In this document: positions 3,183 through 54,703 of the stretch, piece by piece | Layout of the letters: each line of letters begins with the position of its first letter | How positions within the stretch are numbered: position 1 is the stretch's first letter | Source of the DNA: Deltaproteobacteria bacterium HGW-Deltaproteobacteria-4 | GTDB taxonomy: Bacteria; Desulfobacterota; Desulfuromonadia; Desulfuromonadales; UBA2197 | DNA: 64,000 nucleotides | Assembly (NCBI GenBank): GCA_002841765.1 | Contig: PHAV01000004.1 | Span: 59,075-123,074, forward strand | Reading direction: 5' to 3' | Made by a program: the position numbers and the translations under genes | Notes under the pieces: generated by a model | Database searches by the model: none | The model's input: only the letters and a program-made list of their open reading frames with translations | What the model was told of the DNA's origin: nothing

Positions 3183-3313
3183 GATCGGAATGCATCTGTT
3201 ATCCGGAATTTCCGTATAACTTTCTCTGTTGTTGCATTTTTTGCACGAACTGGAACTACCGATAAATTCACGGTAGTTCAGTAATGACGTAACAGTCAAA
3301 GGAACGTTGTAAT

Positions 3314-4309: not shown

Positions 4310-4311
4310 AC

Positions 4312-15928: not shown

Positions 15929-15930
15929 GA

Positions 15931-16545: not shown

Positions 16546-16864
16546 TTATAGTTATCTGATAATAGGTGGAAAAATGAGGAGATGTCAATTGCGAAAATAA
16601 CAATGTTTCTGCTTTCTTTGTTTGAATAGGGTTTGCATTCCCGCCTATTCACGAAATTATTATCGTTTTAGCATTTTTTCTGGTTCTATTTTTATAGATA
16701 CAGAACGTCTTTCTATTTTCCGCTTGACAGAAGACGGGCACCTCATTAATCTGGTAAAAAAATAAATGGTAAGGCCAATTATTTGAAATGTCATTTCCCC
16801 CTTGGCCGCCAGTCTTAACGTTGAGGAATTCAGAACCGCACCGCACCGAGGAAAGGAACCTGTC

Positions 16865-18460: not shown

Positions 18461-18492
18461 CCATTATTTGATTCATAGAGACGGGGTGATTT

Positions 18493-19866: not shown

Positions 19867-19867
19867 G

Positions 19868-22950: not shown

Positions 22951-22978
22951 AAATGACCTTCTCCTGGAGTCAATAGAG

Positions 22979-24298: not shown

Positions 24299-24312
24299 GG
24301 GAAGGAAGCCGG

Positions 24313-25272
24313 ATGATTCCGCAGAAAAATCTTATCGTTGTCACCTCCGCACCGCATGTGCACAGTCCGGACAACGTCCCGACCGCCATGCGCGATGTCC
24401 TCATCGCCTTGACGCCGGCGCTGCTGGCCGCCCTCTACTTCTTTCGATTGCCGGCATTACTGGTGATCCTGGCCTGCGTGATCAGTGCCTACGCTGCCGA
24501 GATTGTCTGCCTGAAGATCATGAAGCGGGAATCACCGACCCGGGAGAGCAGCGCCATTATCACCGGCCTCCTTCTCGCCTTCTGTCTGCCGCCGTCGTTA
24601 CCGCTGTGGATGGCGGTCCTCGGTACGATCTTCGCCATTGTTGTTGCCAAGCATCTCTTTGGCGGCCTCGGCCAGAATATCTTCAATCCCGCCCTGATTG
24701 GCCGGGCTTTCCTCCTCGCGTCATTTCCGGTGGCGATGACCAACTGGACCAACCCCCTTGACGGCTTGAGCACCGCCTCCCCCCTCGGGATTATGAAAGA
24801 GGCGGGCGGGGAGATCCTCCCTCCGCTCCGAGATATCTTCCTCGGCTCGGTCAGCGGCAGTATCGGCGAGACCAGTGCTCTGGCTCTGCTCCTTGGCGGT
24901 GCTTATCTCCTGTACCGCAGGCAGATCGACTGGCGCATACCCGGCACCTTCCTCGGCACCGTCTTTCTCCTCACCGCCATGATCGGCGGGATAAAAGGGG
25001 AGGGACTGTGGTATCCCGTTTATCACCTTTGTGCCGGCGGCCTCCTTCTCGGCGCCTTTTTCATGGCGACCGACTGGGTCACCTCACCGGTGACCAAGCT
25101 GGGGCGCATCCTCTTCGGTATCGGCTGCGGTCTTTTGGTCGTCCTGATCCGTCTCAAAGGGGGCTATCCGGAAGGGGTGGCCTACTCGATCCTGTTGATG
25201 AACGTCGTCACCCCGCTGCTCGATCGCTATACCAAATCGCGGGTATTCGGGAGGGTGAAGAGCCATGCGTGA
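24313..25272 (+). CDS. rnfD: Rnf complex subunit D
   Basis: NqrB/RnfD-type polytopic protein (VTSAPHVHSPDNV...). Flavinylation region DGLSTASPLG. Confidence 0.92.
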   Translation: MIPQKNLIVVTSAPHVHSPDNVPTAMRDVLIALTPALLAALYFFRLPALLVILACVISAYAAEIVCLKIMKRESPTRESSAIITGLLLAFCLPPSLPLWMAVLGTIFAIVVAKHLFGGLGQNIFNPALIGRAFLLASFPVAMTNWTNPLDGLSTASPLGIMKEAGGEILPPLRDIFLGSVSGSIGETSALALLLGGAYLLYRRQIDWRIPGTFLGTVFLLTAMIGGIKGEGLWYPVYHLCAGGLLLGAFFMATDWVTSPVTKLGRILFGIGCGLLVVLIRLKGGYPEGVAYSILLMNVVTPLLDRYTKSRVFGRVKSHA

Positions 25273-41682: not shown

Positions 41683-41934
41683 GCAGAGATGACGGCAAAG
41701 TTCAGCGCGTTTCGCGAACACTTCACTGCAGGAAGGACTCGCGGTACGGTCTGAAAGAAGCCCCGCAGCGAAGGAAGAACGACGGCTTTGCATCGCCACT
41801 CTTCCCCCGATGCGGGTCATGATGAAGTGTGCAGCACAAAGGCGCAACACGGCGCTGCCGCCGGGAATGATCCCGGCGGTGAAGCGTCGTATTACTGCCT
41901 TTATGCTGCTCAGAGTCGACAAACTGTTTCCTGA

Positions 41935-43179
41935 TTACTGAATAATAACGTTGAAAGTTAATGTGAAGACTTCACCAGGCTTCAATTCCCCGACCGTGTA
42001 ACTGGCTTCGGCGGGGAGCAAGGTTGCAAGGGTGGCCGTGATTGCCTGCCCCGAAAGCTCAACACCATCGGCATCGCTGGTCGTTGTGTAGTACTTAGCA
42101 ACATTTCCGCCAGCAAGGCCGCTACCGGCATTGCCGATTCGACTCCCGGTCACTGATGCCTTGAAACCAGATCCTGCTGCAGATTCAGCTGCAGGCGTTG
42201 CCGGCGTGCTGAAATCAGTCAACAAATCAGCATCCATGAGCAAGCTGGCAATCAGGGTGTCACCGATGCTGGTGAGGGTCGCGGAGGAGGGAGCTCCCGC
42301 GTCATTGGTAATCGTCACAACATATTGCACAATGGCACCGGGGATCGCTTTCGGAGTGGTGGTGTAATTGATCGGATCCCAGAGCGTCGTTGCTACTTTA
42401 TTGACAGAAATATCAGCCGAGGAAACAACGAAGACGCTATAAGCCGAATCTGCCCCATCAAGATTGCCATCTTCTGGACCCGTCCCGGCAGCCGTATCAG
42501 CCAGAACAACGGGGACCGCTGCCGTACAGCCCGGACCATTATAAGTCGATGCATTGGTCGTCTCTGCACCCAGGGCAGCTGCAGTACCACCGGCAGCTGT
42601 ATTTGCATTCAGCGCATAAACCGCTTTACTGCCATTGGCCAAGGCAACAGCAATAGCCGGGGTTCCGGTGGCAACGATATAAACGGTTCTAGATGTATCT
42701 GGTGCAAGTTCGTCGATGTAAGTGGCAACATCTAATACGTCATAACCGACTGCGTCGCCCGATTCGACAACGACGACGACGCCGGAAGCGTTAAAGGTAT
42801 CGACGGAATCGTTCGCTGCCCAGACGGTGTAAGTGCCATTTGCTTTAGTGACCGGGGTAAGGATGTAATCCTGAACGGTATTACCAATATTTGTGACGGT
42901 AAATTCTAACACCGCTTGCAGGGTGCCGGTGCCGGGCACAACAGAGACCCCGGGAGCCGCGTCTGCCGTTATGACCGTGAGATTGACCTTACTCGCGACC
43001 TCAAAAGGTGTAGCAGTGCCATTTTCTACAGGTTGAGTCACTCCTCCGACAGCGTAGGTAAGGGATGCCGTGTTCGTGATGTCTGTACAGACCGGTGTGC
43101 CTGCGGCCAATGCCGATAGCGGCGTCATTGCCGCGAAAGCGGCAGCCAAAAGAAATGCTGATAAACGGGTTCTTTTCAT
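41935..43179 (-). CDS. Secreted 415-aa DUF11-type pilin-sized protein (protein H)
   Basis: AGGAGAG lies before ATG 43179. Signal peptide MKRTRLSAFLLAAAFAAMTPLSALA|AGTP. The mature N-terminus TDITNTASLTYAVGG is shared with protein F. Terminal module WDPINYTTTPKAIPGAIVQYVVTITN. Ends FTLTFNVIIQ. Confidence 0.85.
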   Translation of the reverse strand: MKRTRLSAFLLAAAFAAMTPLSALAAGTPVCTDITNTASLTYAVGGVTQPVENGTATPFEVASKVNLTVITADAAPGVSVVPGTGTLQAVLEFTVTNIGNTVQDYILTPVTKANGTYTVWAANDSVDTFNASGVVVVVESGDAVGYDVLDVATYIDELAPDTSRTVYIVATGTPAIAVALANGSKAVYALNANTAAGGTAAALGAETTNASTYNGPGCTAAVPVVLADTAAGTGPEDGNLDGADSAYSVFVVSSADISVNKVATTLWDPINYTTTPKAIPGAIVQYVVTITNDAGAPSSATLTSIGDTLIASLLMDADLLTDFSTPATPAAESAAGSGFKASVTGSRIGNAGSGLAGGNVAKYYTTTSDADGVELSGQAITATLATLLPAEASYTVGELKPGEVFTLTFNVIIQ

Positions 43180-43263
43180 GGTGCTCTCCTTTTTTGCTGG
43201 TTGTAGTTGTTCTTGCGGGACAATTCCCAGGTGTAAAAGCCAACCCCCTATTTCCAATGTTCG

Positions 43264-43758
43264 TTATTTCACTTTAGCTTTGTAAGAGACGCTGCCCTTG
43301 GCGCCGTCTTGCAGGGCTCCTTCGAATGTCCAGCGGATGTGGGTGTAGTCCGCTGCGCTGGCCGGTTGCTCCTTTCCTTCGGCATCCTTGATCTTCAATT
43401 TGTCGGCCGCGGCGAAGATTTGACCCTTATCAACAGAGAAATCGATGCGCGCCCCTTTCCCCTCGGCCGTATTGTCAAGATAGAGCATATGCTCCGGCAG
43501 CGGATTGTTGATGACCACATTCGTTGCCGGTTTATCTCCCTGGTACTCATAGTGCGTAGTAAAGATGATCGTATCGCCGGGGGTAACATTGGTATCTGCG
43601 GCGGAGACACGAACGGTCTCCTGCTCCCCTTTATCATTCTTGACGATGATATCGATCTCGGCGGTTGACTTGAGTTCGATCCCTTTTTTCTCGGCGGCAC
43701 TGGCGGGGAGGGCGACCAGCACGAGAAGGGATAAAATGGCTAGCAATTTTTTTGTCAT
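43264..43758 (-). CDS. Secreted single-domain DUF11 protein, 164 aa (protein G)
   Basis: Signal peptide MTKKLLAILSLLVLVALPASA|AEKK. One DUF11 repeat (VTPGDTIIFTTHYEYQGDKPATNVVINNPLPEHMLY). Ends SVSYKAKVK. Confidence 0.85.
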   Translation of the reverse strand: MTKKLLAILSLLVLVALPASAAEKKGIELKSTAEIDIIVKNDKGEQETVRVSAADTNVTPGDTIIFTTHYEYQGDKPATNVVINNPLPEHMLYLDNTAEGKGARIDFSVDKGQIFAAADKLKIKDAEGKEQPASAADYTHIRWTFEGALQDGAKGSVSYKAKVK

Positions 43759-43808
43759 AAGTGACTCCTATCTGTCTGGTTCTCTTGAAAAATTTTACGT
43801 TTATCGCT

Positions 43809-44822
43809 TTAGTTGATCGTCACATCGAAGGTGATAGTCTGCTCCGGGGAAGCATTGGTCAGATCGCCGAGACCGACGGTGACCGTCACTGGCGCGCCAG
43901 CGACACTGCCGACATCAAGATCAGCGCCATCGCTTAGCGGTGCGCCGTTTAATTTAAGGGAGCTAACGACATAGGTGGAGTTATCAGGTATTTCGTCGGT
44001 GATCACCACGTCTGCGGCAGTACCGACACCGGTGATGGAGGCTTTGATGCTGTAGGTAAGGATGGCGCCGGGGATTGCCTTCGGAGTGACGAAGAGATTA
44101 GTCGGGTCCCAGGTAATTACCACCGATTTGTTCAAAACCAGAGAAAGGAGGTTGACGGTATAGGTCCCTTCTGACGAGTGTTTTCCGTCACGAGTAGTAT
44201 CACCGGCGGCACTGCCGGCATTATCGGCAAAGATGACATCAACGCCGGCGGTATTAGGGCCGACAGTTGCAGTTGTCACAGTCGTGGTGCCGGCATCGAC
44301 TGTCGTAGCAACAAGTTGATAATCTGATATGTCCCCACTGACCGCCCCTGCCGGGGTGTCGGCAATGATCAAGATTGCAAGGCTGTCATCCGCATCAACG
44401 TCACCAAAGGTGGCAGCGTTGACATAGAGAGTGTCACCGGCATCCAGAACGCCGGGAGTGGTGCCGTTGTCGAGGAAGATGCGGACATTATCCATGACAA
44501 TGCCGGCGCTGTTGGTTGCGTCCAGGGCATAGCGCTGCGTGGTATTGCCTTCGTTCTTGACTGAAAAGACAAGGGCTTGATCGGTTGATCCGGGTAAAAC
44601 AGTGGCGTCACCATTTTTAGTCACCGTCAGGTTGACCTTGTTGTCGACAACGATATTCGGAGCCGATGCGGTCTTGGTCACCGGAGTAGCGCCATCGTTA
44701 TAGGTGGCGGTTGCCGTGTTAGAGATATCCGTCCCCGACGGGGTTCCGGCTGCATAGGCCGCTTGAGTGAGCGGATAGCAGAGCGCCAGGAGCAGAGCGA
44801 TGGTGGCAATCTTTTTTGTCAT
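43809..44822 (-). CDS. Secreted 338-aa DUF11-type pilin-sized protein (protein F)
   Basis: AGGGAGG lies before ATG 44822. Signal peptide MTKKIATIALLLALCYPLTQAAYA|AGTP. TDISNTATATYNDG. Terminal module WDPTNLFVTPKAIPGAILTYSIKA. Ends QTITFDVTIN. Confidence 0.85.
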   Translation of the reverse strand: MTKKIATIALLLALCYPLTQAAYAAGTPSGTDISNTATATYNDGATPVTKTASAPNIVVDNKVNLTVTKNGDATVLPGSTDQALVFSVKNEGNTTQRYALDATNSAGIVMDNVRIFLDNGTTPGVLDAGDTLYVNAATFGDVDADDSLAILIIADTPAGAVSGDISDYQLVATTVDAGTTTVTTATVGPNTAGVDVIFADNAGSAAGDTTRDGKHSSEGTYTVNLLSLVLNKSVVITWDPTNLFVTPKAIPGAILTYSIKASITGVGTAADVVITDEIPDNSTYVVSSLKLNGAPLSDGADLDVGSVAGAPVTVTVGLGDLTNASPEQTITFDVTIN

Positions 44823-44907
44823 GGTGTACCTCCCTTTCTTTTCTTGTGTTGAACCGGGTTTGAAAAGTTGTGAGCGAATAAAAAATCCATATCTTGTTCC
44901 TTTCTGA

Positions 44908-47900
44908 TTATTTGATCCTGACTCTGAATTTGACGTTGAATGAGGGGTGATTGGTTCCATTTGAACCATTAAAGATGCCGATTAAGGGGATTTTTATATT
45001 GGTAACTGTCGAGTCGCAGCCGTTAATGTCCGGTGCTGTATTGCTTTTGTCGTAATTCGTGCCGCCATTGCCGGAAAAGGCGAGATTGTCAGTGGTGCTG
45101 GCCAGACTGGTAAAGGTGTAGCTGAGGCCGCTCGCAGTCGTGCCATTGTTAAAGAGGACAGGACCGATCGATGGCCCGGCACCGTCGAAGTCGTCGACAA
45201 AGAGTTCGGTGTCGGCCGGAATCGAATCGGTAATGACGGTGGTGTTGCTGTCAACTGCGCCGGCGCCAAAGTTGGTGACCTGGATGGTGTAGTCGACAAA
45301 AGCGCCGGGAATTGCTTTGGCTCCTGCTCCTTCACCATTAACCGGGTCGGAGAAGACCTGTGATGATTTGACCACCAGCAGGTTCGGCATCGGCACGATG
45401 ACGCTCAAGGCTTGCAGTGCGTAATCACTGACCGTCCCCTCGGTCCCCTCATTGGCAACGACGCGGGCGGTCCAATTTCCGGCCGGGCCGCCGGCCGGGA
45501 TGGTGTAGGGGCCGTACTGGTAGATCTTGGTGGCGGCGTTTGAATCGTAGGCTACGCTCATGGCGACCGGAGCAGGCGAACCAATCCGGGTAACACCGGA
45601 GGGGTCAGTCAAAGTCAGGGTGGCGCCGGTGATATCGTAACTGCCGAAGGGGTCACTGACCGTGGCGCGGATATAGACCGTGCTTCCGACAGTCAGCGAG
45701 GTAACGCTGCTGCCGCCAGGGTAGAGGGCAGTATGGAAGGTGATGTCGCTGTTATTGATGTTGATGACGTTTTTCGAGTTGATAGTGACCATCGACGAGT
45801 TTCCGGTCGACGGCGCTGGGTAGACGTTGATGTTGCGTCCAGTTCCGGTGCCTCCCTGGGTGTTGGTGATGTCCATGATCAGGGCGTTGCCGCTGGCACA
45901 GGTGTAATCAGTTGACGATACAGGAGTGAGGGTAAAGTCGTAGCGGACGGCGCCTCCGACGACTAAGTCGGCGCTTAGTGAGGTTGTGGCGACGCTCGTT
46001 CCGCCGCACGTCAGCGTAATCGGGATGGTATAGGTACGGTTGCTGTTGGTCGAGAGCCAGAGGGTCACCGGAATATTGCCGTTGCTGATCGTCACATCCG
46101 ACTGCAGGGCCGGGTTGAGCGTCCAACTCTGGGTAATGCTGCCGCGGGGGATCGCGACAATAGAGCCGGCTGCGGTCGGCATCGGTGTGCGCGAGAGTTT
46201 ATAGCTGGGGGTTGAGCTGTTGTTATAGAAGTAGAGGGGTTTGTTCCCGGAACCCGGTAGCGAGCCGCTATTGACGATCAGTGCTGGCGCATCGGGATTG
46301 GCGCCGATGCCGCCGGGGACGGTGACCGTGGCACTGTTGTCGATGACCGTCCCCGTCGCGGTGCCGAGGGGGATGGTGACATCGTAAATGAGCGTGACGC
46401 TGCCGCTGGCCGGGACGGTGATGTTGGTGATATACAGGTAGCCGGTACCATTACCGCCGGTACCGAAGGGGGTCGAGAGGTTGGTGGCGCCGCCCGGCAG
46501 GGGGAGAATGACACTAAAACCGCTAGTGTTGTTGGGGATGGTGTCGGTCACCGACACGTTGCTGGCGCCAACTCCGGCAGTTTCAGTCAGGGTGATAGTG
46601 TAGCGGATGACATCACCGGCCAGGGGGTCGCCGCCGCTGGTGCGGTTAATCCAGTTTTTCGTTGAGGTCGAGAGGTTAGGAATAGCGACAGTTGTGGTGT
46701 CGCTGACGTCACGGGTCTGGCTCGCCAGGCCGGTGGTATATGTGGCGCGGGTAACGACAGTGTCAATCGTTCCGTTCGTGGCGCTGCCCGGAATCGTCTC
46801 ACGCACCAGGATGCAGATATTTTCGTTGGCTTCGAGATTGACCGCCGCAGTGATATCCGATTCGCCGGCATCGAAGCTGCCGTTGCAGTTGTTGTCGCGC
46901 ACATAGGTAATCGCCGGCCAACCCCCCTGGGTACGGCTGTTTGTGGTAAACGTGACATTGCCGCGGGCTGTGGCGGTGAAGATATGCGCGTAGTAGACCG
47001 GTGTTGATGAGTTGCCGACTGCGCTTAAAGGGGTCGGTGTGAAGTTGATAGTGATCGGCGGCGGTATATCGCCGAAAATGAGATTGAAGTAGTCGGTATA
47101 GAGGGTATAGGCAAACTGCTGATATTCACCGGCAATGGTGTAAGTACTGCCGGTCGTGCCGGAGTTATAGCTGACCGAGGTGTAGCCGGCGAGATTGTTT
47201 TCATAGATACGCAGGGTGGCGCTGGCGGTGTTGGTGAAGAGGGCGAAGTTGCCGCCGGCATCGGTGGTGACGGTATCGTAGGTGGTGGTTCCGGTGCTAT
47301 TGCGCAGCGTCAACGTCACCCCGGCGATGCCGGTCTCGGCGGCATTGAGAATACCGTCATAAGCGGTGGTGATACTGCCGTTGAAGCCGTCATCCTTGAT
47401 CACTTTGCCGCTGATGCGACTGCCGTTGTAAAGGAAGAAGTTCCGGTTGGTCAGATTGGCGCCGCTGGCGACAACTCCGCTCAGGGTATAGTTGATGGGG
47501 GTGACATAGATCCAGTTGGCGCTCGGAAAGCTCGGGTCGTAGACATTGACGGTGTTGGTGGAGCTGAGAATGACGACATAATCACCGTAGCTCGGGACTC
47601 CGGAAAAAGTGTAAGTGCCGAGAGTAGTGCTGACCTGCACAGGGGCGACGACAGTGGTACTCAGGTCGCTGGCGCGAAAAAGTTTGGCATAATAGGTCTG
47701 GCCAGTGACCTGGGATTCGCCGCCGTCGCGCACGCCGTTGTGGGCGATGCCGCCGCTAAAACCGTTGTCATTGTACACCGTGCCGCTGATGCTGATCGTG
47801 CCGCTGCTGACGGTGGTGCTGACACTGGCGCTGTTGTCGGCCGGCAGATAGTCAATGATGCCGGCCGGCGGCGTCAGGGTGGCGGTGTTGACCAGGACCG

Positions 47901-49077
47901 TGCCCTGTGGGGTAGCGGCGGCGACCGTGCCGGTGATGGTATAGGTGGCAGCGCCGTTAAAGGGGAGGGTGGCCGTGGTGTTAATGTTGTTGCCGCTCCC
48001 TGCAGCGGCGCCGCAGGTTCCGCCACCGGAGCCGGCGCAGGTCCAGGTAACACCGGTTAACGCTGCCGGGACAGTATCGACGATCGGTACGTTGTTGGCG
48101 ACGGTCACCAGGTTGGGGCCGTAGTTGCGGGCGGTGACGGTATAGGTCAATGCGCCGCCGGGAGCGACGGTCGGGGCAGAAGCGGTTTTCGCGATAGCGA
48201 GATTGATGTTTATCGGTAGGTTGTCGATGGCGAGATTGCGGATTTCGTGATAGTTGGTCGAACCGCCGGTACTGGCGGCATAGCCGACCTTGACCGTGCT
48301 CGGGATCGGCCGCATGGTGTAAAGGGTGTCGACCAGATAGGTCAGGGGCTGGTTGTAGCCAAATTGCATAAAGACATCGACACGCATGTATTCCGGTGCG
48401 GCGACCGGCGTCAGGTAGATGACGACCTTGCGATACTGGCTGCTGAGTTGGCCGGGGCGAAAGGCCTGATTGTACCAGAGGGTGCCGATGTTGGCAGCCG
48501 TGCCGCCAATGTAGTAATAGGCGCCGAGGGAGTGGTCGTAGGGGCCGCGCACTGCCACTGAATTTTGCCGCTGGCCCGGACCACCCAGCCGACCTTCGGT
48601 CGGATTGGAAAAATTGCCGTACTCGTCGATACCGACACCGATATAGCCGCCACTGAGACCGGGGGAAACAGGCGCGACGGTCTTTTTATCGTAGCCAAGG
48701 GAGCCGCCCGAGGCGCCGACCTGAAAGGTTGTAGCGTTATAGGCGCCGTCAAAGAGATAAATACTGTAACCGTCGGCACCGTTGCCGCCCCAGGTGGCGT
48801 AGTCGAACTGGATGACGACTCCCTGTGAAATGTCGAAGGAGCTGTCATACATGGCAAAGCCGGATTGGTTGCCGGTCGGTTCGGTCAGACGCAGCCAGCC
48901 GTTGCCGGGGGCGTCGACACCTGTGCTGGCGGTGAGGTAGGCTGCACCGCCAATGACCCAGCCGGGGGCGGTGGCACCGGTCATTGGCTGGTCGAGGAGG
49001 GCAGCCTGACCCGGCAAAGCCAGGCCGATGGCCAGGATCAGGATTGCGATAATAATTAATGGGTTTCGATTTTTCAT
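44908..49077 (-). CDS. Secreted 1389-aa adhesin-like protein (protein E): L-type-lectin-like head + DUF11 + two SdrD-B-like modules + shared C-terminal region
   Basis: Signal peptide MKNRNPLIIIAILILAIGLALPGQA|A. Lectin-like motifs (GWLRLTEPTGNQSGFAMYD..., GADGYSIYLFDG, GGYIGVGIDEYGNFSNP). DUF11 (VAPGGALTYTVTARNYGPN). SdrD-B-like (ISGTVYNDNGFSGGIAHNGVRDGGE...GTYTFSGVPSYGDYVV; ISGKVIKDDGFNG...GNFALF). Ends FNVKFRVRIK. Confidence 0.85.
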   Translation of the reverse strand: MKNRNPLIIIAILILAIGLALPGQAALLDQPMTGATAPGWVIGGAAYLTASTGVDAPGNGWLRLTEPTGNQSGFAMYDSSFDISQGVVIQFDYATWGGNGADGYSIYLFDGAYNATTFQVGASGGSLGYDKKTVAPVSPGLSGGYIGVGIDEYGNFSNPTEGRLGGPGQRQNSVAVRGPYDHSLGAYYYIGGTAANIGTLWYNQAFRPGQLSSQYRKVVIYLTPVAAPEYMRVDVFMQFGYNQPLTYLVDTLYTMRPIPSTVKVGYAASTGGSTNYHEIRNLAIDNLPININLAIAKTASAPTVAPGGALTYTVTARNYGPNLVTVANNVPIVDTVPAALTGVTWTCAGSGGGTCGAAAGSGNNINTTATLPFNGAATYTITGTVAAATPQGTVLVNTATLTPPAGIIDYLPADNSASVSTTVSSGTISISGTVYNDNGFSGGIAHNGVRDGGESQVTGQTYYAKLFRASDLSTTVVAPVQVSTTLGTYTFSGVPSYGDYVVILSSTNTVNVYDPSFPSANWIYVTPINYTLSGVVASGANLTNRNFFLYNGSRISGKVIKDDGFNGSITTAYDGILNAAETGIAGVTLTLRNSTGTTTYDTVTTDAGGNFALFTNTASATLRIYENNLAGYTSVSYNSGTTGSTYTIAGEYQQFAYTLYTDYFNLIFGDIPPPITINFTPTPLSAVGNSSTPVYYAHIFTATARGNVTFTTNSRTQGGWPAITYVRDNNCNGSFDAGESDITAAVNLEANENICILVRETIPGSATNGTIDTVVTRATYTTGLASQTRDVSDTTTVAIPNLSTSTKNWINRTSGGDPLAGDVIRYTITLTETAGVGASNVSVTDTIPNNTSGFSVILPLPGGATNLSTPFGTGGNGTGYLYITNITVPASGSVTLIYDVTIPLGTATGTVIDNSATVTVPGGIGANPDAPALIVNSGSLPGSGNKPLYFYNNSSTPSYKLSRTPMPTAAGSIVAIPRGSITQSWTLNPALQSDVTISNGNIPVTLWLSTNSNRTYTIPITLTCGGTSVATTSLSADLVVGGAVRYDFTLTPVSSTDYTCASGNALIMDITNTQGGTGTGRNINVYPAPSTGNSSMVTINSKNVININNSDITFHTALYPGGSSVTSLTVGSTVYIRATVSDPFGSYDITGATLTLTDPSGVTRIGSPAPVAMSVAYDSNAATKIYQYGPYTIPAGGPAGNWTARVVANEGTEGTVSDYALQALSVIVPMPNLLVVKSSQVFSDPVNGEGAGAKAIPGAFVDYTIQVTNFGAGAVDSNTTVITDSIPADTELFVDDFDGAGPSIGPVLFNNGTTASGLSYTFTSLASTTDNLAFSGNGGTNYDKSNTAPDINGCDSTVTNIKIPLIGIFNGSNGTNHPSFNVKFRVRIK

Positions 49078-49170
49078 GTCATTTATGCCAAAGACTGCCC
49101 GGATAAAATGTTTATGCTTCTATCCATCTGAATTTGTAAAACTTTTGTTTCATGTTATTTGTGGAAAAAA

Positions 49171-49208
49171 CAATAAAAAACGCTCATTTTCATCCCCGAA
49201 AATGAGCG
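49171..49208 (-). terminator. Intrinsic terminator in the 5' leader of the DUF11 operon (riboswitch expression platform)
   Basis: Minus strand reads CGCUCAUUUU-CGGGGAUG-AAAAUGAGCG followed by UUUUUUAUUGUUUUUU. It lies ~95 nt upstream of ATG 49077 and ~35 nt downstream of the aptamer. Confidence 0.8.
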
Positions 49209-49244
49209 CCTGAATAACTGCTTTTTCTGCGCAGTTAGATCATT

Positions 49245-49340
49245 CACTTTGTCTTCGGTAGCCCGGCTGTCCGTTCATGAAACGGATCCTGAGCTTTGCG
49301 TCGCCGGATTACTCCGGTTTTGCTTTTATCGGAATAAGTG
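49245..49340 (-). promoter_or_regulatory. GEMM-I class cyclic-dinucleotide riboswitch aptamer (c-di-GMP-I family; A at the Vc2 G20-equivalent position suggests the Geobacter-type cGAMP-sensing GEMM-Ib variant)
   Basis: Minus strand reads CACUUAUUCCGAUAAAAGCAAAACCGGAGUAAUCCGGCGACGCAAAGCUCAGGAUCCGUUUCAUGAACGGACAGCCGGGCUACCGAAGACAAAGUG. It has GCAAAA, a CCGGA-GUAA(GNRA)-UCCGG hairpin, the ACGCAAAGC core, a second hairpin (UCCGUU/AACGGA), CAGCCGGGCUACC, and closing pairing CACUU/AAGUG. I aligned it by eye to the V. cholerae Vc2 aptamer. Confidence 0.75.
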
Positions 49341-49357
49341 AAACTAAGATTATTATA

Positions 49358-49387
49358 GTTATAGAACTTTAGACGTTAAATTGTCAA
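49358..49387 (-). promoter_or_regulatory. Candidate sigma70 promoter for the riboswitch/DUF11 operon (TTGACA-N18-TATAAC)
   Basis: Minus strand has TTGACA (49387-49382), an 18-nt spacer and TATAAC (49363-49358). The aptamer starts ~17 nt downstream of the -10. Confidence 0.5.
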
Positions 49388-49848
49388 GTCATTAGGAGCA
49401 GGTTCTGTGCCAATTCAACCTATTGTAAAATCGAGTTTCTTTGGCCTTTTCATGGGGGTGGTGAAAGCTGTGGGGCAGGGGGGTGATCGCCTTAAAAGGA
49501 GGATTATTGCGAGCTGAATGACCAAGGTAAATATCTGAAAAAAGGAGTAGAAACGTTTCAACTATCGGTACAGACACGGTTAAACCTTTGTATTGTCCGG
49601 CTTTAGCAGGATTAGGCCCGAAATACGCGGCGAGTTGTACGAAGACAAAGAGTCTTTTGTGGTCGTGAACTGGCGAGCCGTGACGTGATTTGCCGGTGCC
49701 GTCTCAGCTTGAACCGGCAAATCACGTTGACCGGTTGGTGGGCACGGATCAAGTCGCACCCCTTGAGGGAAGAGCTCCTTTGGCGCAATTTGTCGTTTGT
49801 CCCAATTTGACCTGCCATAAATTGTCATGCGCTCGACTCGCCGCAAGC

Positions 49849-50622
49849 TCAAGGCCTTTTCCCTTGTTGGAGAATCGGGATCATGGCGTCGTGAATCAAG
49901 CCGTTGCTGGCCAGGCATTCGAGTTGGAATGGAGAGAAGGGAGCACCATCGAAATTGCTGACCCGACCGCCGGCCTCGGTGACCAGCAGTATGCCGGCGG
50001 CGGTATCCCAGGGTTTGAGTTTCATCTCCCAGAAGCCGTCAAAGCGGCCGGCGGCAACGCAGGCAAGATCGAGACTGGCAGCTCCGGGGCGGCGGCAGGC
50101 CTGGGCCTTTTCCTGGAAATGGATAAAGTGGTCAAAATTGTTGGTCAGGGAGGAGGAACTGGCCGGCGCGAAACCGGTGGCGAGGAGGGCGCGATCAAGG
50201 CGGTTGATCGCGGAGACCTGCAGGGGGTGGCCATTGAGGGTTGCGCCTTGACCCTTTACCGCAACAAAGAGTTCTTCGTACATGGGGTTGTAAACGATGC
50301 CGAGGATCATCTCGCCGGCATTTTCGAGGGCGATGGAGACGGCGAACCAGGGGAAGGTGTGGGCAAAGTTGGTGGTGCCGTCGAGGGGGTCGATGATCCA
50401 GCGAAAGGGGCTGGAGGTCTGCGGGTAAGCCCCTTCTTCGGCAAGGATATTGTGCTCGGGATAGTTTGCCTGAATAACTCCGACAATCGCTGCCTCGGCT
50501 TCGCGGTCCGCTTCGGTGACGAGATCTTTGGCGCTCTTCTCTTCGATGTGCAGCCGGGTGCCGAATTTGCTGCGCAGGACTGCGCCGCCGGCGCGGGCCG
50601 CGGCCAGAGCGGTCTCTTTCAT
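49849..50622 (-). CDS. suhB: Inositol monophosphatase family protein (SuhB-like)
   Basis: Motifs AEEG, WIIDPLDGTTNF and WDTAAG. ATGA overlap with the upstream radical SAM gene. Confidence 0.9.
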   Translation of the reverse strand: MKETALAAARAGGAVLRSKFGTRLHIEEKSAKDLVTEADREAEAAIVGVIQANYPEHNILAEEGAYPQTSSPFRWIIDPLDGTTNFAHTFPWFAVSIALENAGEMILGIVYNPMYEELFVAVKGQGATLNGHPLQVSAINRLDRALLATGFAPASSSSLTNNFDHFIHFQEKAQACRRPGAASLDLACVAAGRFDGFWEMKLKPWDTAAGILLVTEAGGRVSNFDGAPFSPFQLECLASNGLIHDAMIPILQQGKRP

Positions 50623-51533
50623 GGGGAATTCCTTTTCTCCTGGTCCTCGAACCCCCGCAGATAGAGGGTCCCACAGCCACCATCGGTGTTGCTGCGCCAG
50701 CGATTGGGGCGGCGAACCGAGATGCCCTTTTCGTGTAGATAGTCGTGCCAGTGATCCATATTATCCGGATCGCTGTGAAAGTCCATCCCGACTACCGGAT
50801 TGTAGCGCAGCAGGTGCAGGGTGAAATCCGGCCAGCGTTGCATCAGCCGCTGAAGGGCGAGGAGGTCAGCTTCACGGTCATTCACACGACTGAAGAGGAG
50901 GTAGTTGATGCCGATCTTGCGGCGCTTGCGACGTGAAATCAGATGATAAATCCGGTCAATTTCAGTGCAGAGCAGCTCGAAGTCCGGCCCCTTGGGGATG
51001 AGTTGCTGGTGGATCTCTGCATCGGCGGCATGTAGCGAGATCATGACACCGTTTTCGGCGAGTTCGACCAACTCTGCGAGATGTTTTAAAACAACCCCGG
51101 TGGTGGTGACCGAGATCCCCGGTCCATTTTTCTGGCAAGCAAGCATGTAACTGCGGACATTCTCCCAGTTATGCAGGGGTTCGCCGATTCCCGAGATGGT
51201 CAGGCGCTGTGGTTCGAAGCCGTTCTGTCGCAATCGTTGAAGCTGCAAGTGCAGCTCGGCAGCGGTGAGTTGCCGCTTCAGCCCCTGGCTGCCAGAGGCA
51301 CAGAAGGGGCAGGCCAGAGCGCAGCCGGCCTGAGATGAAATACAGAGGGTGCCGGAGCCGTAATAAACCGCTTCGATAACCAGGCCGTCGTTGAGGCTGA
51401 TCGGGAATTTGAAGTTAAGGGGAGAATGCGAAGGGTTAGTTCTGATTGGACAGCCTGAGGTAGCAGTCAGCTTTGTAGAGACTGGCATCCGGTGCAAGGG
51501 GTGACGACTGGTTTTTTGTGAGAAAAAGGTCAA
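50619..51533 (-). CDS. RlmN/Cfr-family radical SAM enzyme lacking the usual N-terminal accessory domain
   Basis: TLCISSQAGCALACPFCASGSQGLKRQLTAAEL is RlmN-like, including the upstream Cys and the CxxxCxxC cluster. The C-terminal GGCGTL corresponds to the RlmN second catalytic Cys region. Start uncertain (TTG 51533 or ATG 51488), and both overlap the upstream gene by 53-98 nt. Confidence 0.7.
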   Translation of the reverse strand: MTFFSQKTSRHPLHRMPVSTKLTATSGCPIRTNPSHSPLNFKFPISLNDGLVIEAVYYGSGTLCISSQAGCALACPFCASGSQGLKRQLTAAELHLQLQRLRQNGFEPQRLTISGIGEPLHNWENVRSYMLACQKNGPGISVTTTGVVLKHLAELVELAENGVMISLHAADAEIHQQLIPKGPDFELLCTEIDRIYHLISRRKRRKIGINYLLFSRVNDREADLLALQRLMQRWPDFTLHLLRYNPVVGMDFHSDPDNMDHWHDYLHEKGISVRRPNRWRSNTDGGCGTLYLRGFEDQEKRNSP

Positions 51534-52032
51534 ATGATTTCAATGCAGCGCGACAATCATCCCGCCGATAGGCCTTGACAGCCTGCTCAAACAGTTTCTG
51601 CCCGGCTGTGGCGTTAGCGGCAAGTGCCGCACGGTGTTTATTAGTTGATGGCTTAGCGGCAACCGACTTTTTATGTACTTTTTTGCCACCATACAACGGC
51701 GCCTTAGCGTCAGGACGCGGTATTCTCTTTTGTGCAACCGGTACCTTGAACACATCCCCGGGATAAATCTTGTTGGGATTCTTGATGTCGTTAAAGAGTA
51801 AAATCTGGGGGTAATAAGAACCGTATCCGCTGAATCTGCGCGAGATTTTGTAGAGGGTATCTCCCTTTTTTACCGCCACCTCCTGAACCAGAATGGCATC
51901 CTTGCTCTGCGTGGTACTCCCGGACGCCACCACTGCTGCGGGAGAATAGAGATACTGCTGTTGACTCCATCCTGATGGCACATCCACAAATAGGAGTGTC
52001 GCCATAACCATTACAAATACATATCGCATCAT
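51436..52032 (-). CDS. Secreted LysM-domain protein with TPR-like C-terminus
   Basis: Signal peptide MMRYVFVMVMATLLFVDVPSGWS. LysM (VKKGDTLYKISRRFSGYGSYYPQILLFNDIKNPNKIYPGDVFKVP). TPR-like end (GQKLFEQAVKAYRRDDCRAALKSFDLFL...). The start is 2 nt after the upstream stop. Confidence 0.8.
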   Translation of the reverse strand: MMRYVFVMVMATLLFVDVPSGWSQQQYLYSPAAVVASGSTTQSKDAILVQEVAVKKGDTLYKISRRFSGYGSYYPQILLFNDIKNPNKIYPGDVFKVPVAQKRIPRPDAKAPLYGGKKVHKKSVAAKPSTNKHRAALAANATAGQKLFEQAVKAYRRDDCRAALKSFDLFLTKNQSSPLAPDASLYKADCYLRLSNQN

Positions 52033-52033
52033 G

Positions 52034-54373
52034 TCAGTACCTGTTCCCGATTTGATCTTCATATGTCAGAATGTTTTTAATCTGAATATTGGTCCCCATC
52101 CCGGTCCCCGGCTTCACCCGGAACGAGACCTTGATCACACGCTTCTCTCCAGCACCCAATTCACTGAATTCCCAGAGAAGTGTGCCGTCGTCGGCCGAAT
52201 TGGTTGCCGGGTCGGTTGCAACCAACTCAAGCTGTTCCGGCCAGACACTCTTCAGCTCGACAATCCGTGCCAGATTAGATCCACGGTTGGTGATGGTCAG
52301 ATCCGTTGATACAACTTCACCCGGCAAGAGTTTGCCGTCACGACCGCTCATGGCCATCTCTAGAATCGGTCGCGAATAGACCAGACGGGTAACACCGGCA
52401 AAGGAGCGAGCAGGCTCTCCCTCGGAAAGGAACGTAATCTGGGCGTTCTCTTCCGAACCGTCACTGGCTTCACGGGGAGTCTTAATCTCCATGACAATGC
52501 TGGCTTCCTCTTTAGCTGCCAGTGGACCGATCTCTGTGATGACCGGTTCATTGGCCTGCCTGATGCCATCATGGTTAAGATCATGGAAGATTGTTACGGC
52601 CTGCCGGGCATCCCCGCCAGGGACAATGCTGAACTTTTCGCGCACGTTACCGCTGTTAGTCACCACAAATGGCACCGATACCGTCTGGCCGGGGATCACC
52701 ACCAGTCGTTCAGAACCGGTGTGAACCTGAAGCCCGTGTTGCGGTTGAACATAGATAGCAGAAGAGACAATAACGGTTGTCGTTTTCAAAAGGTTGTTGT
52801 GCAACTCGGCCCTGGTCAAGATCTCCTGACCGGCCAATGAGTCCTCCTTGAGCTGAAAGGTCAGATTGAATTCCCGACTTTCACCGGACTTGAGCTGCAC
52901 GCCATCCATCACAAGTGCTGCTTTCATTTCCTGACGGAAACCATTTTTTTCATAGTCGATCGGCTCCAGTTGGGGCGGGAAGTTCAGCCGGAAAGTGACA
53001 TTGCCAGCCCCGGCTGAGCCGATATTCATAATTGTTACTTTATAAGTAATCTTCGCACCAGGCAGCAGGTCGCTGTGATCTGCCTTAACGGTCGCACGTA
53101 GCAGTGGAGCCGAAGCGATGACTTTCACCTCGCGAGATTGTGAAGCCTCACTCACTGTCCGTGAGGCGGCCTTGACCGGGTAAGAAAAGCGCAGGCCGTC
53201 GATACTGGTTGCGGGGATCGTCAGATGGATGAGGCCTTTAAAGGATTCACCGGGGGCCAGCAGGCTGGTCTGATTAATGGCTTGGGCAGGGGATGCGGCA
53301 GAAGAGAATTCTGTTGAAAAGTTAACCGGGAAACCGGATTCCAGATAGAAAGAGTCGCTGCCATTGCCCTGGTTGATGATTTCAAAGGGGAGGCTGACTC
53401 GTTGAGCAACATTGAAGGACTGTGCCTGGGGTGGCAGGTTGAACTCAATTCCTGCCAACTGGGCAACTTCGAGACGCAGTATCTGGGATGTTTCTGAGGG
53501 AGGGTCTGCGACAGCAGTCCGTTGAGGCAGAGCAAATGCTACCCCCAGTTCTTTCAGTTTGACGGCGGCAGTCTCCGCCGCCTTGCTGTTTGGATAGTCG
53601 ACAAGTATCGACTTATATTGTGCAATCGCCTTCTCGCGCAGATCAGACTTGGCATTGCGGGTCTTTTCTTCAGACGCCTGCTGTGTTGCTTGGCGCTGCT
53701 TATCTGCCAAGGTGGGGGCCTGCTTGTCAACCTCAGTCATGCCAGCGTTTTTCATTGTCTGCAATTGCAGGCGATCCTGCGTGGCAGACTCCCTTGGGCG
53801 CGCCTCGGCGACAACGGTGTGCGTCAGTTCGGCCTTTTCAGCCGCTGCGCGTTCTTCTGTCATGCTGGAAGTTTCAAGGCGTTTGATTATACCGGCGGGG
53901 AAGGGCCTTTGTTCTTTACCTATGTCAGTTGTGCCAACAAGCTGAGGCGCGGCACCATCGGCTGTTGTCGGCAAGCCGGTCGGCAATTCTTCGCCTTGAT
54001 CATAACGGGCGGTCAGTGCAAGCAGTTCCTCATCGACTGTTGCCTTGATCGGGTTATCGGGATATTCCTTCAAAAACTGGGACATGACCCTGGCGGCATC
54101 CTGTTGGTTGCCGTTCTTGTAATAGGCGTTGGAAAGCCAGAACAGCACCATGTCACGCAAGGGCGTATCAGGGGCCTTTTGCAAGACCTCGTTCATTTTG
54201 AGAATAGCGACAGGATAGTTTTTCTGAAGGCTGGCGTTGAACCCTGAAATGAAAATCAAGCCATGTGAGTCTTCCGCATCCAGGCTGTAGGCAGGAAGAT
54301 TAGGAGTTGAAGAAATTATAGCCAGTACGATAACTAACCTGATCAGGGTATTACGGCATAATTTCAGAGACAT
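52034..54373 (-). CDS. Secreted TPR + multi-DUF11/CARDB-like repeat protein (~780 aa)
   Basis: Signal peptide MSLKLCRNTLIRLVIVLAIISS. TPR-like N-terminus (KNYPVAILKMNEVLQKAPDTPLRDMVLFWLSNAYYKNGNQQDA...). A Gln/Ala/Glu-rich linker. At least 4 beta-sandwich repeats (LLPGAKITYKVTIMNIGSAGAGNVTFRLNFPPQLEPI; LLPGEVVSTDLTITNRGSNLARIVELKSVWPEQLELV). Start 54373 or 54391. Confidence 0.8.
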   Translation of the reverse strand: MSLKLCRNTLIRLVIVLAIISSTPNLPAYSLDAEDSHGLIFISGFNASLQKNYPVAILKMNEVLQKAPDTPLRDMVLFWLSNAYYKNGNQQDAARVMSQFLKEYPDNPIKATVDEELLALTARYDQGEELPTGLPTTADGAAPQLVGTTDIGKEQRPFPAGIIKRLETSSMTEERAAAEKAELTHTVVAEARPRESATQDRLQLQTMKNAGMTEVDKQAPTLADKQRQATQQASEEKTRNAKSDLREKAIAQYKSILVDYPNSKAAETAAVKLKELGVAFALPQRTAVADPPSETSQILRLEVAQLAGIEFNLPPQAQSFNVAQRVSLPFEIINQGNGSDSFYLESGFPVNFSTEFSSAASPAQAINQTSLLAPGESFKGLIHLTIPATSIDGLRFSYPVKAASRTVSEASQSREVKVIASAPLLRATVKADHSDLLPGAKITYKVTIMNIGSAGAGNVTFRLNFPPQLEPIDYEKNGFRQEMKAALVMDGVQLKSGESREFNLTFQLKEDSLAGQEILTRAELHNNLLKTTTVIVSSAIYVQPQHGLQVHTGSERLVVIPGQTVSVPFVVTNSGNVREKFSIVPGGDARQAVTIFHDLNHDGIRQANEPVITEIGPLAAKEEASIVMEIKTPREASDGSEENAQITFLSEGEPARSFAGVTRLVYSRPILEMAMSGRDGKLLPGEVVSTDLTITNRGSNLARIVELKSVWPEQLELVATDPATNSADDGTLLWEFSELGAGEKRVIKVSFRVKPGTGMGTNIQIKNILTYEDQIGNRY

Positions 54374-54703
54374 CACGATAAACAACCTCATTCTTGGCCG
54401 GTACGTAAAGAAACACACGGAGGGCGGAGAAATATTTAGATAAATAGATCGTTTTGATAGCAACTCTCCGCATCCTTGTCAAGATGAAAAAGAACATATG
54501 AAAAAGGATAGTGGGCAGCGGGTGAAGAGCGTGCAAGTTGAAAAGTTATTTGGGAAATCATGTTACTCAGTGAGTACTTTGCAAAGTAGGTGCGCTGCCA
54601 TTTTTTTTATCATACCATTAAAAAAGTGCATTTTATTTATGCATTATCCTGAAATGTCGATTGTTTTTTCATTAAATTAACCTCTGGCTGTTACTATTTT
54701 ATT

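Follow-up and report, generated by a model that had tools for sequence, protein, structure and literature searches.

Described riboswitches of the GEMM-I class

Rfam keeps GEMM-I sequences with the GEMM-Ib-type deviation, an adenine at position 20 (A20), within RF01051 (c-di-GMP-I/GEMM-I), and the GEMM-Ib subclass is defined operationally, by a measured selectivity for cGAMP over c-di-GMP. Its sequence mark is an A at the position of G20 in Vc2, the structural reference from Vibrio cholerae, with C92 retained (PMC6140456, PMC6456294; positions are numbered after Smith et al. 2009 as quoted in PMC6140456). In Gmet_0970, the A20G exchange alone converts preference to c-di-GMP, such that position 20 sets ligand preference (PMC6456294), whereas RNAs with A20 in a canonical background, namely the laboratory mutant Vc2 G20A and Cbe 1-2 (a natural A20 aptamer of the firmicute Clostridium beijerinckii, likened here by description), bind both c-di-GMP and cGAMP (PMC6140456). 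Cbe 1-2 prefers c-di-GMP by ITC (Kd of 30 nM, versus 463 nM for cGAMP), and c-di-GMP binding by A20 RNAs goes through protonation of the adenine to A+ (PMC6140456). Given the bispecificity of these two RNAs, A20 alone is insufficient for assignment to GEMM-Ib.

Members of the class also differ in how ligand binding is coupled to termination. In Cd1 of Clostridioides difficile, the terminator stands apart from the aptamer and the switch is OFF, whereas in the pilM riboswitch (Gm0970) the two overlap and the switch is ON (PMC9262584); GSU1761 has an antiterminator that becomes more stable once ligand is bound (PMC9262584, PMC6456294).

The window analysed here, a 64-kb stretch of DNA, derives from an uncultured subsurface deltaproteobacterium (a MAG of the HGW-Deltaproteobacteria-4 type) and encodes a cluster of uncharacterised DUF11/OmpA/isopeptide-domain surface proteins, to which the present reading assigns a cyclic dinucleotide as a putative regulatory signal. 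Judged by its sequence, the RNA element in the 5' leader of this cluster is a true, unexceptional member of the familiar GEMM-I class of cyclic-dinucleotide riboswitches. We consider it very probable that the leader holds a GEMM-I-class riboswitch with A20 that would act by the OFF-type mechanism proposed below, all taken jointly.

A GEMM-I aptamer upstream of a DUF11 operon

The elements of the leader that lie downstream of its promoters are as follows.

49245-49340, minus strand: GEMM-I aptamer including P1 (RF01051 match and minimum-energy fold)
49340-49336 and 49249-49245, minus strand: P1 pairing, CACUU/AAGUG, plus C49331-G49256 and G49330-C49257
49324, minus strand: equivalent of Vc2 G20, here A (Rfam alignment column, model position 11, consensus G)
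49317-49304, minus strand: P2 with GUAA loop, CCGGA-GUAA-UCCGG
49297, minus strand: A47 equivalent, the intercalating adenine in GACGC-A-AAGC (Rfam alignment; canonical)
about 49296-49260, minus strand: P3
49258, minus strand: C92 equivalent, in a Watson-Crick pair with ligand G-beta (Rfam alignment, GCUA-C-CGAA; canonical)
49215-49237, minus strand: linker hairpin UAACUGC/GCAGUUA, between aptamer and terminator (-7.5 kcal/mol, z -2.7)
49165-49211, minus strand: intrinsic terminator from the terminator scan, stem 49211-49178 followed by T6-ATTG-T6

In the Rfam scan, RF01051 matches the minus strand at 49334-49254 with 59.6 bits (gathering score, 35) over the full model (positions 1-87 of 87), with an E value of 3.9e-9 when all 64 kb are searched with 4227 families; it is the sole gathering-level Rfam match within the window. 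The initial annotation had proposed a GEMM-I element of 96 nt from its motifs, and all of the blocks that it described are present between the two strands of P1: GCAAAA, CCGGA-GUAA-UCCGG, ACGCAAAGC, a second hairpin, and CAGCCGGGCUACC. Folded to minimum energy, the aptamer forms P1, P2, and P3 (-26.4 kcal/mol, z -2.1), and the hairpins covary in relatives, so that this family call is borne out: an RNAalifold consensus of 18 related aptamers recovers P2 and P3 with compensatory pairs, with both-sided changes of the P2 closing pair in 6 sequences and of a P3 pair in 8. P2 itself reads ACCGGA-GUAA-UCCGGC in the window and ACCGGG-GCAA-CCCGGU in one orthologous leader (L131).

With Vc2 and the RF01051 consensus, the window element shares the three-helix junction P1-P2-P3, a GNRA tetraloop on P2, the GCAAA and ACGCAAAGC blocks, A47, C92, the pairs G21-C46 and C22-G45, and a place in the 5' leader of a surface/membrane gene cluster; it differs in having A, not G, at position 20. 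The combination of a GUAA tetraloop with a P3 that lacks the 11-nt GAAA receptor (CUAA..UAUG) is that of a known non-receptor subtype.

The initial annotation placed a leader with promoter, aptamer, and terminator upstream of a DUF11 operon, and such a leader does stand there. The ORF list and family scans give the following genes.

35908-49077, minus strand: downstream operon of five ORFs
44908-49077, minus strand: first ORF, 1389-aa DUF11/SdrD-B protein
second ORF, minus strand: 386 aa (337 aa as called in the source record)
third ORF, minus strand: 164-aa DUF11 protein
fourth ORF, minus strand: 440 aa (414 aa as called in the source record)
fifth ORF, minus strand: 2004-aa DUF11 and OmpA protein
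32972-35809: 945-aa DUF11/isopeptide-domain protein, a possible continuation of the operon

Within the operon, no terminator or promoter signal exceeds shuffle expectation, and the riboswitch may control the operon as a whole.

Putative promoters

The promoter-like elements that precede the aptamer are as follows.

49352-49387, minus strand: sigma-70-like promoter, TTGACA (49387-49382), N18, TATAAC (49363-49358) (sequence and promoter scan)
49379-49352, minus strand: alternative, overlapping TTAACG-N16-TATAAT, the version returned by the promoter scan (10/12 matches)
49397-49412, minus strand: sigma-54-type promoter, TGGCAC-N5-CTGCT (-24 GG/-12 GC; consensus match), predicted start near 49386

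The TTGACA-N18-TATAAC promoter of the initial annotation is present, and its two hexamers, though not the spacer, are conserved between the window and two orthologous leaders from other assemblies (L130 and L131). The picture was nevertheless incomplete, as a conserved candidate sigma-54-type element lies just upstream. Promoters of sigma-54 (RpoN) consist of a -24 GG and a -12 GC element at the correct spacing (TGGCAC-N5-TTGCW) and require an enhancer-binding protein. A scan of 26 window proteins against Pfam returned no sigma-54 activator (enhancer-binding) domain. The exact string TGGCACNNNNNYTGCW occurs a single time in the whole window on both strands (0.21 expected by chance), and a 27-nt block around the sigma-54-type element is invariant in three orthologous leaders.

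Terminator, proposed antiterminator, and probable switch polarity

The terminator is stronger than the 10-bp stem at first ascribed to it: 15 pairs are counted at 49211-49178 in the scan, with an energy of -19.1 kcal/mol (z -4.78) that none of 200 shuffles reaches. It lies wholly outside the aptamer, on its 3' side, after a gap of about 33 nt, and ends about 88 nt before the ATG of the 1389-aa protein (49077). Five leaders keep 100% pairing in its lower stem, where two pairs change on both sides, and the linker hairpin is kept in five orthologous leaders, again with two pairs changed on both sides. Overall, five or six orthologous leaders share aptamer, linker hairpin, and terminator in unchanged order and spacing, and compensatory changes accompany this conservation. 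An ON-type layout, in which the 5' arm of the terminator overlaps the aptamer, was sought in the leader and not found. The closest described arrangement is that of Cd1, which likewise has a self-contained terminator downstream of the aptamer, a candidate antiterminator made from the aptamer 3' strand and the terminator 5' arm, and a terminator-plus-aptamer state that is the thermodynamic ground state, hence kinetic read-through. Cd1 differs in having G20, a GAAA tetraloop with receptor, another host, and flagellar genes under its control; the window antiterminator is shorter, is interrupted, and encloses an extra conserved hairpin.

The proposed antiterminator is the following.

49198-49256, minus strand: GAAGA (49256-49252) pairing with UUUUC (49202-49198), and AGUG (49248-49245) pairing with CGCU (49208-49205)

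This candidate structure encloses the linker hairpin and is mutually exclusive both with P1 and with the terminator. Transcription would start at the sigma-54-type and/or the sigma-70-like promoter. Without ligand, the 3' strand of P1 (CGAAGA...AGUG) would capture the terminator's 5' arm (CGCU..UUUUC), and the antiterminator so formed would allow RNA polymerase to continue into the operon. Ligand binding would lock P1, leaving the 5' arm of the terminator free for its 3' arm, and transcription would stop; the switch would thus be turned OFF, as in Cd1.

In folds of the transcript up to 49198, the antiterminator is the minimum-energy structure, at -42.1 kcal/mol versus -39.6 kcal/mol with P1 enforced, a margin of just 2.5 kcal/mol. 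It is also the pre-terminator minimum-energy fold in L130, L131, and L132 (four lineages, together with the window), and its pairing is 100% in five leaders. One compensatory change, of pair 28/76 from A-U to G-C, covaries with terminator pair 76/97, making for a three-way covariation in which A28, U76, and A97 of the window become G, C, and G in L132, L133, and L134. Even in L135, with a much-diverged terminator arm, the same two segments of the aptamer strand can pair (GAAG:CUUC and GGUGU:ACACC). The energy difference is not significant, as 9% to 19% of linker shuffles equal the antiterminator (p of about 0.09 to 0.19), nor are duplex tests lineage by lineage (p = 0.06 to 0.40), and a crude family-wide test of complementarity between aptamer 3' strand and terminator arm gives a mean z of -0.3 over 35 environmental leaders with separate terminators. 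In view of these shuffle tests, the OFF call rests on architecture and on conservation of register. Because the terminator forms at equilibrium with or without P1, any read-through would depend on kinetics.

That the antiterminator is statistically indistinguishable from chance would also fit a terminator that is a constitutive attenuator or leftover, the aptamer being inactive or acting otherwise (on translation, through Rho, or on RNA stability). The leader of the homologous Smithella operon (L007), without an obvious terminator, points the same way, as does the ATG of the 1389-aa protein, upstream of which no Shine-Dalgarno sequence is visible. With about 165 nt between aptamer and start codon, however, the ribosome-binding site is out of reach of direct occlusion, and the co-conservation of aptamer, linker hairpin, and terminator makes such an uncoupling very unlikely in our judgment. 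We retain the riboswitch with a coupled terminator and, where the initial annotation held that the polarity could not be read by eye, now read it with moderate confidence, from folds and architecture, as most likely OFF, in a Cd1-type arrangement.

High c-di-GMP usually favours adhesion, and an adhesin-like operon that c-di-GMP turns OFF would contradict this rule, a point against the OFF reading.

Position 20 and ligand preference

The alignment columns for Vc2 G20 and C92, whose inspection had been proposed along with the original call, read A and C, respectively, and the former (model position 11) immediately precedes the G-C/C-G pair of GCAAA. The aptamer thus carries the sequence mark of GEMM-Ib. 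Both L130 (85% protein identity; GEMM-I aptamer, 55.9 bits) and L131 (73% protein identity; 62 bits) also carry A20, showing that the variant is conserved; this conservation covers the window, L130, and L131, whereas in P0004, P0005, P0006, P0008, and P0009 the contig breaks inside or just past the leader. Across the same three leaders, the J1/2 bases beside A20 vary while A20 stays, a pattern suggestive of selection for this very base. The pocket (A-GC-AAAA ... GAC-GC-AAAG) is otherwise canonical GEMM-I.

We propose, on the sequence of the pocket, that A20 lets the RNA accept 3',3'-cGAMP. Sequence alone does not tell a cGAMP-selective RNA from a bispecific one or from a physiological c-di-GMP sensor; a bispecific sensor is our leading guess because the rest of the pocket is canonical. 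Vc2 G20A matches this aptamer in its canonical GEMM-I pocket with position 20 alone changed to A, although it is a laboratory mutant and the binding of the window RNA is predicted.

The initial annotation had raised, with a hedge, selectivity for cGAMP as in the Geobacter GEMM-Ib RNAs, in which case the element would report a Hypr-GGDEF/cGAMP pathway and turn the operon ON. Gm0970 (pilM) and Gs1761 (pgcA) do share with it A20, C92, a deltaproteobacterial host (here of the Desulfuromonadales neighbourhood, the closest genome match of the DUF11 protein being a Desulfuromonadales MAG at 64% identity), and genes for extracellular/surface proteins; A20 is conserved in the three orthologous leaders, and position 20 by itself flips the selectivity of Gmet_0970 (PMC6456294). 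The flanking pairs, however, part company with those of the cGAMP-selective aptamers. The ligand-adjacent pair is G-C in the window, unlike C21-G46 in Gm0970 (sequence aligned from the supplement of PMC9262584) and C15-G40, at the start of P2, in Gs1761, and the next pair is C22-G45, unlike U22-G45 in Gm0970. The pocket sequence of the window aptamer thus departs from the Gm0970 motif A-CU-AAA ... GAC-GG-AAAG, a trait not proven necessary for selectivity, and its J1/2 reads AUAAAA as opposed to ACAAUA in the Geobacter aptamers. With such a canonical background, described A20 RNAs are bispecific, and Cbe 1-2 even prefers c-di-GMP (PMC6140456). Moreover, the terminator is separate (OFF-type) and clear of the aptamer, unlike those of the Geobacter ON switches, leaving an ON mechanism without a visible structural basis in the window.

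The proteins encoded nearby bear on the same point. Synthases of cGAMP are either Hypr GGDEF proteins, with Ser/Thr in place of the specificity Asp, or DncV/CD-NTase enzymes. Among ORFs of at least 100 aa in six frames, the window holds one credible GG[DE]EF motif, in the protein at 11996-13744, which reads ...GHSMGD...GGDEF and so has the canonical Asp, as had been noted previously; a second cyclase, sought among the window proteins, was not found. A match of GAEDF to the looser pattern G[GAS][DE][DE]F was dismissed because its ORF is spurious. Taken with the pocket, this argues against the cGAMP-selective reading, and we rate it as distinctly unlikely: of the earlier suggestion, A20 stands, while selectivity is not the favoured interpretation.

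The canonical cyclase fits better with an ordinary c-di-GMP riboswitch in a cell that makes no cGAMP, A20 being tolerated through the protonated adenine, for which Cbe 1-2 provides precedent (PMC6140456). Also in keeping with it are the frequency of A20, found in 18 of 124 (about 15%) environmental GEMM-I aptamers that share the P2 core of the window, and the G20 GEMM-I of the homologous Smithella operon. The constancy of A20 amid drifting J1/2 bases counts against mere tolerance, and Hypr GGDEFs are broadly distributed in bacteria (PMC8835794), whereas the cyclase search here covers the window alone. We regard this ordinary c-di-GMP reading as possible, if somewhat doubtful.

A further proposal is that this lineage-conserved, natural G20A GEMM-I, with its canonical pocket and transcriptional OFF layout, responds to cGAMP in vivo; we put this forward tentatively and think it unlikely. 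If it did, it would be a cGAMP-repressed riboswitch, in contrast to all characterised Geobacter GEMM-Ib RNAs, which are ON switches, and would place cGAMP signalling outside Geobacter, over a DUF11, pilin-like surface-fibre operon and atop a sigma-54 promoter. Otherwise, the remainder of the finding is what routine Rfam annotation would give. The locus also adds a conserved natural example of A20 within an otherwise canonical pocket. Sequence does not predict which ligand such an aptamer prefers, and its preference bears on what beyond position 20 makes a GEMM-I RNA cGAMP-selective.

Homologous loci

A scan of the genome collection with the 1389-aa protein returned 8 loci, of which only the Smithella locus has a GEMM-I element; none was found at the Nitrospirota loci, in the uncultured delta proteobacterium (L009), or in Desulfuromonadales GWC2_61_20 (L002). 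With several homologous loci lacking it, the riboswitch is not universal for the operon. In the two closer relatives that do carry the A20 aptamer, L130 and L131, the gene order of the operon is conserved as well.

Identification of the aptamer

The initial annotation proposed a GEMM-I-type riboswitch with an A at the position equivalent to Vc2 G20, and the sequence blocks on which it relied (TTGACA-N18-TATAAC, a 96-nt element, GCAAAA, a GUAA hairpin, and CACUU/AAGUG) read on the minus strand as claimed. A search of the whole window with Rfam 15 returned a single match at the gathering level, to RF01051 (c-di-GMP-I). The match covers positions 1-87 of the 87-position model at 49334-49254 on the minus strand, and its score, 59.6 bits, exceeds the gathering score of 35 (E 3.9e-9). 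Within the 96-nt element lie GCAAAA, the CCGGA-GUAA-UCCGG hairpin, ACGCAAAGC, a second hairpin, and CAGCCGGGCUACC.

Elements of the leader, all on the minus strand
49412-49397: sigma-54-type promoter consensus, TGGCAC-N5-CTGCT, with correct -24/-12 spacing, just upstream of TTGACA
49387-49382 and 49363-49358: sigma-70-like promoter, TTGACA and TATAAC with an 18-nt spacer, read from the sequence
49340-49336 and 49249-49245: CACUU and AAGUG closing the 96-nt element, which begins 17 nt after TATAAC, read from the sequence
49297: A47 equivalent, canonical (RF01051 alignment)
49258: C92 equivalent, canonical (RF01051 alignment)
49237-49215: linker hairpin of 7 bp downstream of P1, -7.5 kcal/mol, z -2.7
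49211-49178: stem of the intrinsic terminator, followed by T6-ATTG-T6, -19.1 kcal/mol, z -4.78

In the RF01051 alignment, model position 11 (consensus G) is A at 49324, as had been proposed; this position adjoins the G-C/C-G two-base-pair helix on its 5' side and corresponds to Vc2 G20 in the numbering of PMC6140456. The G21-C46 and C22-G45 pairs are canonical, and the minimum-energy fold of the aptamer recovers P1, P2, and P3 (-26.4 kcal/mol, z -2.1). Judged from its sequence, the element is a GEMM-I riboswitch carrying the G20A change already known for the class; it was correctly identified, and routine Rfam annotation of any kind would detect it.

Relatives of the riboswitch

The 1389-aa protein encoded by the first gene after the leader, scanned against one genome per species, has eight homologous loci, only one of which, in a Smithella MAG, has an upstream GEMM-I (60.9 bits); among these eight, none was found at the Nitrospirota loci or in the closest Desulfuromonadales genome. 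The Smithella aptamer (positions 2724-2855 of its own locus) has G at position 20, a 55-nt insertion in P3, and a P2 hairpin identical to that of the window, with no obvious intrinsic terminator between the aptamer and the DUF11 gene.

Protein-database matches led to two closer orthologous loci in other assemblies, L130 and L131 (85% and 73% protein identity), which carry leader riboswitches scoring 55.9 and 62.0 bits and share with the window the gene order LysM, radical SAM, inositol monophosphatase, leader, and DUF11 operon. Position 20 is A in both, while the J1/2 bases beside it vary among the three leaders (AUAAAA, AUAAGA, and ACAAGA) and P2 changes in a compensatory manner (ACCGGA/UCCGGC in the window versus ACCGGG/CCCGGU in L131); A20 is thus a lineage-conserved trait rather than noise.

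A metagenome scan with a P2-core pattern recovered at least 120 stretches. Over all fetched loci, 124 aptamer matches (a tally that takes in the window's own copy, the Smithella aptamer, and redundant copies) have G at position 20 in 103 cases, A in 18, and C in 3, such that A20 is a common minority state, at about 15% of matches, redundant copies included. The covariation expected of the two hairpins is also present: the two-pair helix, P2, and P3 all appear, supported by compensatory pairs, in an RNAalifold consensus of 18 GUAA/GCAA-subtype aptamers. Five metagenomic contigs with orthologues of the 1389-aa gene (L132 to L136) all end within or just past the GEMM-I leader (first 100-330 nt), which suggests that these genomes carry the aptamer as a repeat, in several GEMM-I copies that interrupt assembly.

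Expression platform and polarity

The intrinsic terminator of the initial annotation is present, is strong (0/200 shuffles fold equally well), and does not overlap the aptamer. GEMM-I expression platforms follow two designs (PMC9262584): in pilM/Gm0970 of Geobacter, a cGAMP ON switch, the terminator takes the aptamer's own 3' part and the two are mutually exclusive, whereas in Cd1 of Clostridioides difficile, a c-di-GMP OFF switch, the terminator is separate and an antiterminator formed with the aptamer 3' strand competes. The window, with its separate terminator, appears to have the Cd1 design and not that of pilM/Gm0970.

When the nascent transcript is folded only to 49198, the end of the terminator 5' arm, the minimum-energy fold is an alternative structure in which P1 is open (-42.1 kcal/mol versus -39.6 kcal/mol with the aptamer enforced), containing two proposed antiterminator helices.

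Proposed antiterminator helices in the nascent-transcript fold, minus strand
49256-49252 with 49202-49198: helix 1, GAAGA pairing with UUUUC
49248-49245 with 49208-49205: helix 2, AGUG pairing with CGCU and enclosing the linker hairpin

In L130, L131, and L132 the lowest-energy pre-terminator structure is this fold too, and both helices are 100% paired on a five-sequence alignment (A2). In that alignment, L132 and L133 have G-C in place of A-U at pair 28/76 and, concurrently, C-G in place of U-A at terminator pair 76/97; because the two pairs shift together, the change is three-way, and L134 has the same state at these positions. The terminator arm of L135 has diverged (ACACCCGGCUUC) but can still pair with the same two segments of the aptamer 3' strand (GAAG:CUUC and GGUGU:ACACC).

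Opening of P1 would allow the aptamer 3' strand to pair with the terminator 5' arm before the terminator is completed. Folding predicts that at equilibrium the terminator forms with P1 open or closed, and any read-through would therefore depend on kinetics, as has been reported for Cd1. The window riboswitch is probably a Cd1-like OFF attenuator, a polarity in which we place only moderate confidence because the energy advantage over the aptamer-enforced state is small, the terminator wins at equilibrium, and further tests were not significant: 9-19% of linker shuffles match or beat the advantage, per-lineage duplex tests gave p = 0.06-0.40, and a rough test covering 35 environmental leaders did not reach significance.

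Three other environmental A20 GEMM-I aptamers with separate terminators (L059, L077, and L118, from metagenomes) have terminator 5' arms with CUUCGG or UCUUC, complementary to aptamer CCGAAG(A); the L118 duplex reaches -14.3 kcal/mol (p 0.004). Their predicted logic is the same OFF type as in the window, with stronger pairing.

Ligand preference

Ligand specificity is set mainly by position 20, and the A20G change turns Gmet_0970 from a cGAMP-selective into a c-di-GMP-selective aptamer (PMC6456294). A20 is nonetheless insufficient for selectivity, since Vc2 G20A binds both ligands, as does the natural A20 aptamer Cbe 1-2 (c-di-GMP, 30 nM; cGAMP, 463 nM), and bispecificity occurs in several natural GEMM-Ib aptamers, with P1 stability also a factor (PMC6140456). 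Two cGAMP-selective aptamers have been characterised structurally or kinetically, Gm0970 (GACAAUA-CU-AAAC ... GAC-GG-AAAG; PMC9262584 supplement) and Gs1761 (J1/2 comprising A9-A14, P2 beginning at C15-G40; PMC6274999; PMC7288161). Unlike them, the window keeps G-C and C-G beside the pocket, a difference whose bearing on selectivity is conjectural and which is not a disqualifier.

The predicted preference leans towards bispecificity. It is fairly likely that the affinity of the RNA for cGAMP equals or exceeds that for c-di-GMP, selectivity for cGAMP above 50-fold seems unlikely, and c-di-GMP as the physiological ligand is a tenable if less favoured prediction. As initially annotated, the sole GGDEF protein within the 64-kb window has the canonical Asp (GHSMGD) along with GGDEF.

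Promoters

Across the three orthologous leaders the TTGACA and TATAAC hexamers stay constant but their spacer drifts, which supports the sigma-70-like promoter already noted. The sigma-54-type element, TGGCAC-N5-CTGCT, is the sole match to the sigma-54 consensus on either strand of the window (0.21 expected by chance), and the 27-nt block around it does not vary among the three leaders. A putative start near 49386 would add about 46 nt 5' of P1, which leaves the aptamer fold undisturbed; the window proteins scanned included no enhancer-binding protein.

The GEMM-I class and its G20A variation are already known, and the window adds another example. Its residual interest is modest, residing in the conservation of A20 in an otherwise canonical pocket, in the probable OFF wiring, which contrasts with the Geobacter ON switches, and in the candidate sigma-54 promoter.

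Putative downstream operon and neighbourhood

Genes following the leader, all on the minus strand (open reading frame list and family scan)
Gene 1: 1389 aa, DUF11/TIGR01451 repeats and an SdrD-B-like domain
Gene 2: 386-aa open reading frame
Gene 3: 164 aa, DUF11
Gene 4: 440-aa open reading frame, no family match
Gene 5: 2004 aa, DUF11 and an OmpA peptidoglycan-binding domain
Gene 6, 32972-35809: 945 aa, after a 98-nt gap, DUF11 repeats and an RrgB-type isopeptide-forming fimbrial domain (TIGR04226)

By its domains, the cluster is of the cell-surface fibre/adhesin type, a typical GEMM target. The operon interior holds no terminator or promoter signal above shuffle expectation, and co-transcription is plausible. 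The DUF11 repeats and TIGR04226 domain of the 945-aa protein hint at a pilus-like, covalently stabilised fibre as the product of the cluster, in a Gram-negative host. The 1389-aa protein, annotated as hypothetical, is identical to one from GCA_017973775.1 (contig JAEMOH010000061.1); one source lists it under Deltaproteobacteria bacterium HGW-Deltaproteobacteria-4, which has no finer classification inside the Deltaproteobacteria. The 20-25 nt before its ATG (UUGGCAUAAAUGAC-AUG-AAAAAU; 49078-49100; columns 330-351 of alignment A1) are conserved in the three orthologues and contain no recognisable Shine-Dalgarno sequence; just upstream, L131 has lost about 30 nt.

Upstream of the leader (49849-54463, minus strand) are genes for an 809-aa TPR and DUF11 protein, a LysM protein, a radical SAM enzyme, and an inositol monophosphatase-family protein. 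Their synteny with the leader is conserved and, given the TPR and DUF11 protein among them, the DUF11 locus extends to either side of the riboswitch; the DUF11 surface proteins are possible substrates of the radical SAM enzyme. Unrelated neighbouring gene sets encode type I restriction-modification (HsdS and HsdM, 1491-5799), lactate utilisation (LUD/CCG proteins, lactate permease, and FAD-linked oxidase, 13817-21127), and the Rnf complex (RnfC and RnfD, 22928-25272).
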